11,114 nt of DNA from a virus (IMGVR_UViG_2531839195_000011), one strand, 5' to 3'. Counted from the first letter of the stretch, positions 1 through 11,114 are shown. A program made the numbers and translations. Notes: a model not told the origin generated them from the letters alone.

Positions 1-396
1 CGTCATGCTGGGAGCGGTGGAACGCCGCTTCGGCAACGATCTTCCGTCGTCTCCAGTGGAGTGGCTGACGGATAATGGTTCATGCTACCGGGCTAATGAA
101 ACACGCCAGTTCGTCCGGATGTTGGGACTTGAACCGAAGAACACGGCGGTGCGGAGTCCGGAGAGTAACGGAATAGCAGAGAGCTTCGTGAAAACGATAA
201 AGCGTGACTACATCAGTATCATGCCCAAACCAGACGGGTTAACGGCAGCAAAGAACCTTGCAGAGGCGTTCGAGCATTATAACGAATGGCATCCGCATAG
301 TGCGCTGGGTTATCGCTCGCCACGGGAATATCTGCGGCAGCGGGCTTGTAATGGGTTAAGTGATAACAGATGTCTGGAAATATAGGGGCAAATCCA
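1..396 (+). mobile_element. IS2, 3'-terminal portion (element continues upstream of the window); right end at 396
   Basis: Terminal sequence ...gttaagtgataacagatgtctggaaatataggggcaaatcca (355-396) matches the IS2 right inverted repeat as I recall it; the transposase C-terminus lies immediately upstream. Confidence 0.9.
2..385 (+). CDS. insD: IS2 transposase OrfB (InsD), C-terminal ~126 codons; 5' end outside window
   Basis: ORF 5..385 translation ends ...[31 protein letters not shown], the characteristic IS2 InsD C-terminus (integrase-type DDE transposase). Stop TAG at 383-385. Confidence 0.9.
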
Positions 397-642
397 TTCA
401 CCAACCACAACCACACCACTGATTGAAATAGTTCTAGGTGAACGCATTACATTATCTGTTACAGTCTGCCCTGATTGCATATTTTGAGTGGTAACCATCA
501 TAGGGCTATCAAATTCCATGTTTTCAGTTGCTGATAGTGACAAGAAATTATCTGGTTGGCCTTGTAGATGGAAGTAAACACCATCTTTGCCAGTGTAACG
601 AAGCTGATTAGAGTAAATCATTAAATTCTCTTTTGATTTCAA
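397..642 (-). pseudogene. N-terminal fragment (~80 codons) of an unknown protein, interrupted by the IS2 right end
   Basis: Open minus-strand frame (track ORF 310..642) runs from about 642 straight into the IS2 terminus at 396; candidate starts TTG at 642 or ATG about 24 nt downstream ([21 protein letters not shown]...). No family recognised. Confidence 0.3.
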
Positions 643-780
643 AGACTTAGCGCATTTTAATCATTTTTAACCAAGCCTTTGATATATAAGTATTTTCTCT
701 GTTAAGCGTGAGCTACGTAAATTCTATGAACCGCCCCGGGAATCCTGGAGACTAAACTTCCTGAGAAAGAGGTAAACAGG

Positions 781-1107
781 ATGACTAAAAATACTCGTTT
801 TTCCCCCGAAGTCCGTCAACGGGCAGTCCGTATGGTTCTGGAAAGTCAGGGCGAATATGACTCACAATGGGCGACAATTTGTTCCATTGCTCCAAAGATT
901 GGCTGTACGCCGGAGACTCTGCGTGTCTGGGTTCGCCAGCATGAGCGGGATACCGGGGGCGGTGATGGAGGGCTCACCACCGCTGAACGTCAGCGTCTGA
1001 AAGAGCTGGAGCGTGAAAATCGTGAACTGCGCCGCAGTAACGATATCCTTCGCCAGGCTTCCGCTTATTTTGCGAAGGCGGAGTTCGACCGCCTCTGGAA
1101 AAAATGA
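781..1107 (+). CDS. IS629 OrfA (helix-turn-helix / leucine-zipper transposase N-terminal protein)
   Basis: 108 aa, [30 protein letters not shown]...[36 protein letters not shown]. Ends in an A6 run (1099-1104), the expected position of the IS3-family -1 frameshift site. Confidence 0.9.
1099..1104 (+). promoter_or_regulatory. Putative -1 programmed ribosomal frameshift motif (A6) at the IS629 orfA/orfB overlap
   Basis: tgg aaa aaa tga in the orfA frame; orfB (ATG 1104) is in the -1 frame, the usual IS3-family arrangement for making OrfAB. Confidence 0.5.
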
Positions 1108-1990
1108 TGCCACTGCTGGATAAGCTGCGTGAGCAGTACGGGGTCGGACCGCTATGCAGCGAACTGCATATTGCCCCGTCAACGTATTACCACTGTCAGC
1201 AACAGCGACATCATCCGGATAAACGCAGTGCCCGTGCGCAGCGCGATGACTGGCTGAAGAAAGAGATACAGCGCGTATACGATGAAAATCACAAGGTATA
1301 CGGTGTAAAGTCTGGCGTCAGTTGTTACGGGAAGGTATCAGAGTGGCCAGATGCACTGTGGCACGTCTCATGGCGGTTATGGGACTTGCCGGTGTTCTCC
1401 GGGGTAAAAAGGTCCGTACGACCATCAGCCGGAAAGCCGTTGCCGCAGGCGACCGCGTAAACCGTCAGTTCGTGGCAGAACGACCTGACCAGCTGTGGGT
1501 GGCTGATTTTACTTACGTCAGCACATGGCGGGGCCTCGTCTATGTGGCGTTCATCATTGATGTGTTTGCCGGATACATCGTGGGGTGGCGGGTCTCATCG
1601 TCCATGGAAACGACATTCGTGCTGGATGCACTGGAGCAGGCGTTATGGGCCCGTCGACCGTCCGGCACGGTCCATCACAGTGATAAAGGTTCTCAGTATG
1701 TATCGCTGGCCTACACACAGCGGCTTAAGGAAGCCGGATTACTGGCATCAACAGGAAGTACAGGCGACTCGTATGACAACGCGATGGCGGAGAGCATCAA
1801 TGGTCTTTACAAAGCGGAGGTAATACACCGTAAGAGCTGGAAAAACCGTGCAGAAGTGGAACTGGCCACACTCACGTGGGTGGACTGGTATAACAATCGA
1901 CGATTGCTGGAAAGGCTGGGCCATACTCCTCCGGCAGAAGCAGAAAAAGCTTATTATGCTTCCATCGGAAACGATGATCTGGCAGCCTGA
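1104..1990 (+). pseudogene. IS629 OrfB (DDE transposase), frameshifted by a small deletion near 1305-1310
   Basis: Track ORFs 1104..1460 and 1322..1990 are the N- and C-terminal parts in different frames. Frame 0 reads ...HKVYGVKSG..., frame 2 resumes [17 protein letters not shown]... after a TAA at 1307-1309. The element is 1306 bp against the 1310 bp I recall for IS629, consistent with a 4-bp loss. Confidence 0.85.
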
Positions 1991-2205
1991 GTTCACAGAT
2001 AAAACACTCTCCAGGAAACCCGGGGCGGTTCAGCCTGATGCTTCGCACTGGTCTGGGTGCCAGACAAATTGAAGCATACCGCCAGAACTGTTGGGTGGAA
2101 GGCTTCCACTTCAAACGAGTATCTCCTTTAGGGAAGCCAGACAGTAAGCGAGGGATTATCTGGTACAACTATCCGAAGATAAATCAGTTTATCAAAGACT
2201 CATGA

Positions 2206-2378
2206 TATGTCTAAATTACCAACAGGTGTCGAGATTCGAGGTAAATACATTCGCATCTGGTTCATGTTTCGAGGAAAACGATGTCGGGAAACATTGAAAG
2301 GCTGGGAGATTACTAACAGTAACATTAAAAAGGCCGGGAATTTAAGAGCGTTGATAGTTCATCAAATCAGTTCCGGTG
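2206..2378 (+). pseudogene. int: Tyrosine integrase, N-terminal fragment (57 codons), cut by IS1
   Basis: ATG 2206 gives MSKLPTGVEIRGKYIRIWFMFRGKRCRETLKGWEITNSNIKKAGNLRALIVHQISSG, running directly into the IS1 terminus at 2379. Integrase assignment rests mainly on the catalytic fragment on the far side of the IS1. Confidence 0.55.
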
Positions 2379-9611: not shown

Positions 9612-9706
9612 TTCCGGGGGTTTACCCGGGATTTCAGAATAATATGGTATCCGGACATGGGGATACCTGCGCCATCAGTCAGCGCACCTGATATCACTAC
9701 AGACAT
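9605..9706 (-). pseudogene. Out-of-frame N-terminal segment of the same tail-fiber gene (33 codons), separated from the body by a frame break at a G5/C5 tract
   Basis: ATG at 9706 gives MSVVISGALTDGAGIPMSGYHIILKSRVNPRKW*, resembling the Stf N-terminus (MAVKISGVLKDGTGKP...). The frame change maps to + strand ggggg at 9616-9620; one more G/C would join the segment to the 390-aa body. Confidence 0.55.
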
Positions 9707-9729
9707 TGTTTTTCTCGCGATAAATTAAA

Positions 9730-10274
9730 TCAGGAAGAACCTTCCGGAGAGGCGGGCCATTCAATGGCGTTGTATGAGGATTTATCAGTGATGGTGCTGA
9801 AATCCATCGCCTGCAGCGATTTCGCGTAAATACGACAGGCTTTCAGCTTTTCTTTATCTTCGTCGCTGATTAACCCCAGCAGCAGGTCTTCTTCCCATTC
9901 CCCTGTCCGGGCACTGACCTGAGCCAGAAGGGCATCACGCTCATCTTCCGCTTTGAGTCTGTAGTCAAAGACAAATTCATCATTGCGGTAAAACCAGTAA
10001 CCCGGCGCGGTAATGCGGCGGTTGGCGGTAATATCAGGAACTTCAATAACACTGGCGTTACGGGGCTCAATGCCTGTCACATCCTTACCGACCCACACCA
10101 CGCGACCGTCTCCGGTGTAAGTTATTTTAATTGTGTCCTGGCGAAATTCTTCAGCTCTTCATACCAGTTTTTTCCGTCTTCTGAAAAAAGCCAGGTGACC
10201 GAATATCGTTTTGTCATCTGATATTGTTCTGCTGTTTTCGGATTACCCGTAGTAATATTTTTTAAATGCAACAT
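9730..10274 (-). pseudogene. Tail-fiber assembly chaperone of the Mu U / P2 G family, frameshifted
   Basis: ATG 10274 gives [50 protein letters not shown]; a second frame continues ...[42 protein letters not shown]...IEWPASPEGSS (track ORF 9730..10101). Both halves fit the U/G chaperone family as recalled; the shift lies within 10125-10158. Confidence 0.7.
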
Positions 10275-10276
10275 TG

Positions 10277-10767
10277 TTAAATACTCGCTACGTTATACCA
10301 GGTGCCATTAATCAGTTTTTGCAGTGGTCGGTAATACACACCGTCAACGTTATCCGCTGAGTTACGGCCGGTATCCGATATCGCCATCCCTGACAGCCCG
10401 TGTCCCGAAGGTGCGCAAAATCTCCACGAAACGGTGTTACTGCCGGGGCTGTAATACATTTCATGGCCATACCGTACATCCTGTACCCCCTCTGTTCGAT
10501 ATTTATAGCGGGCATCGAAGTTTCCGTAATTTAACGGAATTACCTGTCCGTTAACAGTGAACACTATGCTGTTATCCGGGTTTCTCTGGCTGAAAAAATG
10601 CCAGCCTGAATCATCACCAAGCTCTGCAACAACAGGCCTGGATGGATTACCCCACAAATAAAACGCTGCATTTTTCGTGGAGTTGTTGGCGCTGGATAAC
10701 GTGAATTTTCTGGCAGTTCCGGCCTGAATATTCTTAAAAGCAATAGCCACTCCATTCTGAAAGCGGA
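10277..10767 (-). pseudogene. C-terminal (receptor-binding) fragment of a second tail-fiber gene; 5' part replaced by IS2
   Basis: Track ORF 10277..10795; its first about 9 codons lie inside the IS2 left end (from 10768), so the native coding sequence begins abruptly at the IS2 junction. Sits directly upstream of a U/G-type assembly gene (2-nt spacer), the typical fiber-chaperone pairing. Confidence 0.5.
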
Positions 10768-11114
10768 TAGACTGGCCCCCTGAATCTCCAGACAACCAGT
10801 ATCACTTATTTAAGTGATAGTCTTAATACTAGTTTTTAGACTAGTCATTGGAGAACAGATGATTGATGTCTTAGGGCCGGAGAAACGCAGACGGCGTACC
10901 ACACAGGAAAAGATCGCAATTGTTCAGCAGAGCTTTGAACCGGGGATGACGGTCTCCCTCGTTGCCCGGCAACATGGTGTAGCAGCCAGCCAGCTATTTC
11001 TCTGGCGTAAGCAATACCAGGAAGGAAGTCTTACTGCTGTGGCCGCCGGAGAACAGGTTGTTCCTGCCTCTGAACTTGCTGCCGCCATGAAGCAGATTAA
11101 AGAACTCCAGCGCC
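10768..11114 (+). mobile_element. IS2, 5'-terminal portion (element continues beyond the window); left end at about 10768
   Basis: tagactggccccctgaatctccagacaacc...taagtgatagtcttaatactagtttttagactagtcattggagaacagATG matches the IS2 left end and insC leader as recalled. Confidence 0.9.
10859..11114 (+). CDS. insC: IS2 OrfA (InsC), N-terminal 85 codons; 3' end outside window
   Basis: ATG 10859 gives [85 protein letters not shown]. Not in the ORF track because no stop falls inside the window. Confidence 0.9.

Follow-up and report, generated by a model that had tools for sequence, protein, structure and literature searches.

The sequence analysed here, IMGVR_UViG_2531839195_000011 (11,114 nucleotides; hereafter the window), is assigned to a virus and contains the operon sitABCD between the remnants of a phage excisionase and integrase on one side and phage tail-fibre genes on the other, and it begins and ends inside copies of the insertion sequence (IS) IS2. 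The operon encodes an importer of Mn2+/Fe2+ made up of an ATPase, two permeases and a periplasmic binding protein, and papers cited in PMC3852070 report that Sit contributes to the virulence of Shigella and to its growth inside cells. The stability of sit in the genome would therefore have some relevance to strain evolution and to attenuated strains. The window is the whole of the draft contig AKMZ01000054.1 (11,114 bp; GCA_000268025.1), whose reverse complement is identical to it, and joins through its internal repeats depend on the draft assembly; it ends inside IS2 because the assembler stopped at a multicopy repeat. The following features were mapped from a list of open reading frames (ORFs), a repeat scan and family searches with Pfam, PHROG and NCBIfam; loci and contigs used for comparison are cited by their L numbers.

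1-396, plus strand: 3' part of the left IS2 (IS2 positions 936-1331), with the C-terminus of orfB at 5..385 and the right inverted repeat ending at 396
397-726, minus strand: 5' part of a Dit-like baseplate gene and its upstream region (Pfam Dit_like), with a start at ATG 603 or TTG 642 and reading down to 397
727-2032, plus strand: IS629-type element of the IS3 family, 1306 bp, with 25-nt inverted repeats, orfA and a split orfB
2033-2205, plus strand: Rac-type excisionase gene (xis), 5'-truncated at IS629 (Pfam DUF1233, phrog_539)
2207-2378, plus strand: N-terminal arm-binding domain of the integrase (int), 58 codons, cut by IS1 (Pfam Arm-DNA-bind_2)
2379-3144, minus strand: IS1, 766 bp (repeat scan, ORF)
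3145-3784, plus strand: C-terminal catalytic part of the integrase (Pfam Phage_integrase, phrog_216)
3785-4238, plus strand: non-coding region
3785-4010, plus strand: predicted unsplit region of the phage attachment site (attP) type, from matches to both attachment sides (attL and attR) of an Escherichia coli O121 prophage
4121-4183, plus strand: putative sit promoter operators, with a Fur-box-like site (4121-4139) and an MntR-type palindrome (4162-4183)
4217-5129, plus strand: sitA (Pfam ZnuA), with an open frame of 296 codons from ATG 4239
5129-5956, 5953-6810 and 6807-7664, plus strand: sitB, sitC and sitD
7865-8488, minus strand: DUF4376 tail-fibre gene, full length, 207 codons
8439-9706, minus strand: tail-fibre gene with a 'prophage tail fibre N-terminal' domain
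9730-10274, minus strand: tail-fibre assembly gene, with a 1-base deletion near 10137
10277-10767, minus strand: C-terminal part of a tail-fibre gene, cut by IS2 (phrog_454, phrog_6859)
10768-11114, plus strand: 5' part of the right IS2 (IS2 positions 1-347), with the left inverted repeat and the start of orfA at 10859

No tRNA was found in a tRNA scan of the window, and the sole match in an Rfam search was an ALIL frameshift pseudoknot (1062-1178) in the IS629-type element. Much of this layout agrees with a preliminary description of the window. The interval 397-10767 between IS2 ends of the same orientation is present (both IS2 alignments are plus/plus and TnpA and TnpB are on the plus strand), integrase remnants lie on one side of sit and tail-fibre genes on the other (Pfam and PHROG matches), and IS629 (727-2032) and IS1 (2379-3144), two of the further IS events that it lists, were located. 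Its view of sitABCD as cargo in a decayed phage remnant is likewise borne out by E. coli prophages at ttcA and by isolated phages, and was already known. Its statement that the sit genes alone are intact fails, because the canonical start of sitA is out of frame, the DUF4376 gene has its full length and the IS1 ORF is uninterrupted at 231 codons.

The sitABCD operon and its phage backbone

All the parts expected of a SitABCD importer are found in one operon: a cluster-9 binding protein, an ATPase and two ABC-3 permeases. SitA matches the ZnuA family of Pfam (E 8e-86), the PRK15056 model of Mn/Fe ATPases is matched with 594 bits vs a cut-off of 393, ABC-3 permease models are also matched by the sit proteins, and the lengths of sitB, sitC and sitD are equal to those of the RefSeq E. 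coli genes. Upstream of sitA are a perfect MntR-type palindrome at 4162-4183 (AAACATAGC-N4-GCTATGTTT) and a Fur-box-like site at 4121-4139 that has three mismatches to the 19-bp consensus. The assignment of these two sites to MntR and Fur is putative, by analogy with sitA and mntH promoters. The operon is a phage-borne cargo operon, or 'moron', with its own putative operators of the Fur/MntR type.

The canonical ATG of sitA, at 4217, is out of frame in this contig, where the A-run at 4227-4232 has six rather than seven bases; from this ATG a 6-codon ORF runs to a TAA at 4235-4237, which ends one base before the ATG at 4239. In a census of the A-run, the six-base form was common to only two IMG/VR contigs (L018 and L019), and the seven-base form was found in 10 of 10 complete Shigella flexneri genomes and in 13 other loci. 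A 304-residue SitA call, consistent with seven bases, is also present in three independent draft contigs (L045-L047). The six-base run is probably a homopolymer sequencing error. Were it real, SitA would need re-initiation, and its signal peptide would be without its two lysines.

On the left of the operon, the integration and excision module is non-functional by its sequence, as int lacks 422 bp and is split by IS1, while xis has no start. The xis fragment covers positions 18-67 of the 70 positions of Pfam DUF1233, lacks about the first 14 codons and is 94.8% identical to xisR of the E. coli O121 prophage (L001, from 26272). The N-terminal piece of int matches Arm-DNA-bind_2 at 4e-20 and intR of L001 up to 26617, and the C-terminal piece matches Phage_integrase at 4e-24 and is 98.7% identical to the same intR. 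Between the two pieces, IS1 has no target duplication, and the 422 bp of int that are missing at its junction correspond to L001 26617 to 27040. The attL side of the O121 prophage matches the window up to 3885 and its attR side matches from 3843; therefore the two halves meet in the window, with a 43-bp overlap at 3843-3885. A phage copy of the 5' end of ttcA is found at 3837-3890, within the same region. By these alignments, 3785-4010 is an unsplit attP-type junction between int and sit. Three TTTGCCCC repeats (3793-3811 and 3990-3997) are found around the junction, which exceeds the number in any of 200 shuffles, and these repeats may be arm-type integrase sites. The window and the complete S. 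flexneri genomes lack 31 bp, with two more TTTGCCCC repeats, that are kept in the E. coli relatives and in L019.

A tyrosine integrase gene and an excisionase gene that adjoin an attachment site are what is expected of a Rac-type lambdoid phage. On the other side, tail-fibre and assembly genes adjoin the sit cargo, as identified by matches to phage_tail_N, Caudo_TAP, DUF4376 and tail-fibre PHROGs and by synteny with L002 and phage ev207, and the DUF4376 gene is 98% identical over 207 of 207 residues to its E. coli homologue. The same genes are found in complete prophages. E. coli O121 201805972 and CFSAN029787 each carry an integrated prophage at the Rac site, in the order uspF, sitABCD, tail fibres and, further on, recE, xisR, intR and ttcA, which shares with the window xisR/intR (95-99%), the att core, sit (99.9%) and the tail-fibre genes (98%). 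In these prophages attL and attR are apart, with the prophage body between them, whereas the window has them united as attP and lacks most of the phage. The isolated phages ev207, 1H12 and Lambda_2E9 have the same order as the window, namely xis, int, attP region, sitABCD and opposite-strand tail fibres, and their sit genes are about 98% identical to those of the window. The ev207-type phages are complete and have another integrase and attachment module, with an icd fragment next to int in ev207; unlike that of these complete sit phages, the module in the window is of the Rac/ttcA type and is inactivated. In addition, prophage Perceval of strain LF82 carries sit as a moron (PMC9928086). By gene content and order, sitABCD is phage cargo, and the window is very probably a fragment of a Rac-family temperate phage with its attachment site in ttcA, in which the vegetative lambdoid order of xis, int, attP, sitABCD and tail fibres has been kept.

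Another account would be that the sit segment belongs to an ordinary prophage integrated where its attachment site lies, with the IS elements irrelevant to its placement, as the homologous O121 and CFSAN029787 prophages at ttcA, with sit at their uspF end, might suggest. In the window, however, int and sit are joined by unsplit attP-type sequence and not by a prophage body, which fits a tandem or recombined fragment, and the E. coli loci L003, L009 and L010 likewise show an int remnant and attP upstream of sit. We therefore regard an ordinary prophage as very unlikely and favour a fragment of a Rac-family phage.

Two side observations concern the neighbours of sit in E. coli. Between uspF and the int remnant upstream of sit, L003 has a fragment (7368-7883) that is only 67-70% identical to sitD and may be what is left of another sit-like cluster of older date. 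In E. coli O121 an IS66-family element is located between sitD and the DUF4376 gene (L001 16027-18606), where the alignments of the window overlap by eight bases (7921-7928), consistent with an 8-bp target duplication.

Run-length differences like that of sitA are also found elsewhere in the window. The programmed-frameshift motif of IS1, TTAAAAAAC (2828-2846, minus strand), reads TTAAAAC, so that A6 has become A4 by a 2-base loss, and the A4 run fuses insA and insB' into one 231-codon ORF (2394-3089); the orthologous IS1 copy has A6 in most genomes and A5 in L020. If the A4 run were real, a constitutive transposase would follow. Another locus of CP004057.1 (L033 9946-10711) has an IS1 with A4 that encodes the same 231-residue protein. 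Among the tail genes, a 1-base deletion near 9619, in the gene at 8439-9706, is found in this contig and not in the complete genomes compared, whereas that near 10137, in the tail-fibre assembly gene, is also found in several complete S. flexneri genomes; tail-fibre assembly gene calls of 123 residues are present in L022, L023 and L025-L027. We considered the six-base run of sitA, the A4 run of IS1 and the deletion near 9619 as real decay or as a hyperactive IS1, and downgraded this reading in view of the draft status of the contig and of the A5 or A6 found in the same IS1 elsewhere. Because the window is a draft contig, the run-length differences are treated as probable sequencing artefacts, and they are poor evidence either for or against function.

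The IS2 copies and the left flank

With the 1331-bp IS2 of L014 (1401-2731) as the reference, window 1-396 aligns to IS2 positions 936-1331 and window 10768-11114 to positions 1-347, both plus/plus and at 99.7%; the left piece is 99.7% identical to the full IS2 of L014 and L015, and the right piece matches L014 1401-1747 at 99.7%. The ORF at 5..385 matches positions 176-301 of the 301 positions of the NCBIfam IS2 transposase TnpB (E 9e-87), and the ORF at 10859..11113 matches positions 1-85 of the 121 positions of the NCBIfam IS2 repressor TnpA (E 5e-56). Since both pieces are plus/plus to one full copy, the coordinates 397-10767, an interval of 10,371 bp, and the co-orientation are correct. 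That the two copies might be different elements in different orientations, which the preliminary description had named as the finding that would count against it, is thus not what the alignments show, as both pieces fit one full IS2. Only 396 and 347 bases of the two copies lie in the window, and their full lengths and target duplications are taken from related copies.

The left IS2 has the same junction in the complete genome of S. flexneri SFBU1023 (L014), where the element is 1331 bp long and has TTCAC on both sides; TTCAC at 397-401 of the window is one copy of this duplication. When the IS2 and one TTCAC are removed from L014, a 244-codon ORF is restored that matches phrog_3721 at 2e-116 and Pfam Dit_like. 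At the right end of the window, sit, the tail fibres and the left end of IS2 are contiguous, with the junction at the same base, in the independent contigs L045 and L046, and the target pentamer is GCGGA at 10763-10767. In a paralogous tail-fibre module (L015, L016, L039 and L042), a complete IS2 occupies this very site between two copies of GCGGA, and baseplate genes follow beyond it. Between 8384 and 10412 the window and this paralogous module have 24 differing sites, and the two are therefore distinct copies. The same IS2 insertion in two paralogous modules suggests a duplication or gene conversion after the insertion.

The paralogous module also occurs in the same genome as the window, where a tail-fibre module 99.1% identical to that of the window has an IS2 at the same base and in the same orientation (L042 8653-9983, AKMZ01000075.1). 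In L015 (118-1944), and also in L038 and L039, a gene for a 608-residue IpaH-type effector with LRR_TTSS and NEL E3 ligase domains is next to the DUF4376 gene. The similarity of this ipaH-linked module to the window begins at 7895, and ipaH takes the place of sit beside the DUF4376 gene; two virulence cargos therefore use the same phage slot.

By these comparisons, each IS2 copy entered a phage gene by an ordinary insertion of its own, and the interrupted gene goes on past the element. The preliminary description had allowed that the segment might move as a composite unit, and an IS2-sit-IS2 composite transposon, moved or movable as a unit through its outer IS2 ends, would account for two co-oriented IS2 copies around an adaptive operon and for a sit island reported at several chromosomal sites (PMC7545054). 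Each IS2, however, has its own 5-bp duplication in relatives, with different pentamers (TTCAC on both sides of the left copy and, in the paralogous module, GCGGA on both sides of the IS2 at the right-hand site), and the interrupted genes go on outside the IS2 copies; both observations argue against arrival as a composite transposon. The inner segment has a different IS context in the complete S. flexneri genomes, and the sit loci of E. coli, whether in the prophage at ttcA or carried by phages and plasmids, lack the IS2 pair. A composite transposon is thus extremely improbable and was rejected on the separate target duplications in relatives and the other contexts of the inner segment. As for the target duplications at the outer ends, which the preliminary description had proposed to check, each IS2 has a separate one in the relatives, and the outer ends of the contig's own IS2 copies lie beyond the window. 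Presence of exactly this interval in relatives, which had also been suggested, was not observed, as the complete S. flexneri genomes examined are without this IS2 bracket. Two separate insertions are therefore retained as the origin of the bracket.

The left end of the bracket depends on the IS629-type element. Its orfA is at 781-1107 and its orfB is split by a frameshift (1104-1460 and 1322-1990); RefSeq annotates IS629 copies of 99.8% identity as 'frameshifted'. In the window this element has no target duplication, with CTA on the left vs GCC on the right, whereas in L014 it has CTA on both sides, and there the terminal part of a gene for a large serine recombinase (Resolvase, Recombinase and Zn_ribbon_recom domains) adjoins it on the right. 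In E. coli ECGC74 a homologue of the baseplate gene is part of a prophage that likewise has a serine recombinase and occupies yecE, beside aspS; yecE/aspS is also the site given for the pathogenicity island PAI sit in a review (PMC7545054). In L019 and in 10 of 10 complete S. flexneri genomes, an AAA_24 gene of a Rac-like early region is found to the left of the sit-linked IS629. Because the neighbours differ in L014 and in the complete genomes, the window pairs the left surroundings of one IS629 copy with the right surroundings of a second. Judged from these neighbours, bases 397-726 come from a prophage of a different type, which has a serine recombinase, and are joined to the rest at IS629. 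Of the single IS2-bracketed remnant that had been proposed, the bracket is thus present in this contig and the single remnant is not supported.

In the complete S. flexneri genomes, the first IS2 upstream is met about 5 kb further to the left. Exact-pattern scans for the left junction elsewhere found it only in L014, with a different right side, and in a 480-base locus, and look-ups of the hybrid ORF across the junction gave no match. The left 726 bases, that is, the IS2 end and the 330-bp baseplate fragment, may hence have been mis-joined through the multicopy IS629, with the real nearest upstream IS2 elsewhere. Such an error would be in keeping with a window that is exactly a draft contig whose homopolymer lengths differ from those of relatives, with the absence of the left join from the ten complete genomes and L019 (all of which have AAA_24, IS629 and xis in this order) and with the arrangement in the complete L014, where the Dit-like gene with its IS2, IS629 and the recombinase gene follow one another and the CTA duplication matches. 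The IS629 of the window is, moreover, a mosaic of L014-type and L020-type variants with four private ones, as expected for a repeat consensus. IS-mediated rearrangements do, however, distinguish Shigella strains, the junctions are located exactly at the ends of IS629, and the right IS2 junction, which is also unlike that of the complete genomes, is confirmed by L045 and L046. On balance we consider a mis-join a possibility to be kept in mind but the less probable outcome, and the interpretation below is given for a contig that is correct as it stands.

Deletion potential and relation to the sit island

We infer that the phage backbone was inactivated step by step. IS629 lies at a deletion of about 350 bp that took the start of xis, and IS1 at the 422-bp deletion inside int; there are also frameshifts in the tail genes, and IS2 interrupts a baseplate gene at the left end and a tail-fibre gene at the right end. 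The baseplate gene would be joined to the sit fragment solely via IS629, either by recombination between two IS629 copies or by the assembly. If the contig is correct, its IS2 copies would be direct repeats of 1331 bp with an identity of about 99.6%, separated by 10.4 kb. As the copies seen in relatives are 99.6% identical, they would be well suited to homologous recombination. A RecA-dependent exchange between the two would remove 11,702 bp together with sit, and one IS2 flanked by TTCAC and GCGGA would be left. Of the consequences that the preliminary description had drawn from the direct IS2 repeats, homologous deletion is accordingly retained as plausible, given co-oriented copies of 1.3 kb, and movement as a composite is not, given the separate duplications. 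Fisher and colleagues reportedly described RecA-dependent loss of sit.

Several observations weigh against such a deletion-prone bracket. The linkage of the IS2-interrupted Dit-like gene, IS629 and xis is found only in this draft contig among the genomes examined. At the other end, the GCGGA duplication is seen solely in the ipaH-linked paralogous module and not at the sit-linked right IS2, to whose outer flank no contig extends. The deletion product, one IS2 with TTCAC and GCGGA, was not found in 5,426 complete E. coli genomes, a collection outside which the Shigella genomes fall; the query was a synthetic sequence of left flank, IS2 and right flank, and its matches were unrelated IS2 copies near homologous phage genes, none of them covering both flanks. 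RecA-mediated deletion of sit between the IS2 copies is therefore plausible only if the join at IS629 in this contig is real.

A further step would be that, in a correctly assembled genome, RecA releases an 11.7-kb circle of sitABCD and one IS2, which could re-enter the chromosome or a plasmid at any other IS2 copy or by means of the IS2 transposase. If true, this would make sit part of an IS2-borne translocatable unit and could help explain the occurrence of the sit island at several chromosomal sites; we think it a long shot.

Ten complete S. flexneri chromosomes, AE014073 (strain 2457T) among them, contain positions 726-10650 of the window without a break and at about 99.85% identity, and the window is very probably the core of the Shigella 'sit island', or 'PAI sit', that has already been described. 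PAI sit is characterized, in the review, as IS-rich, variable in location and unstable via homologous rather than site-specific recombination (PMC7545054, citing Fisher et al., 2009). It is already established that sit is phage cargo and that its island is rich in IS elements and prone to recombination; all that this contig contributes is a variant IS pattern at the level of the strain, part of which may be an assembly artefact. As in PAI sit, the operon of the window is surrounded by genes of phage type and by numerous insertion sequences. The complete S. flexneri genomes have IS600 at the right end, at window position 10650, whereas this contig has IS2, and the left neighbour of IS629 in those genomes differs from that in the contig.

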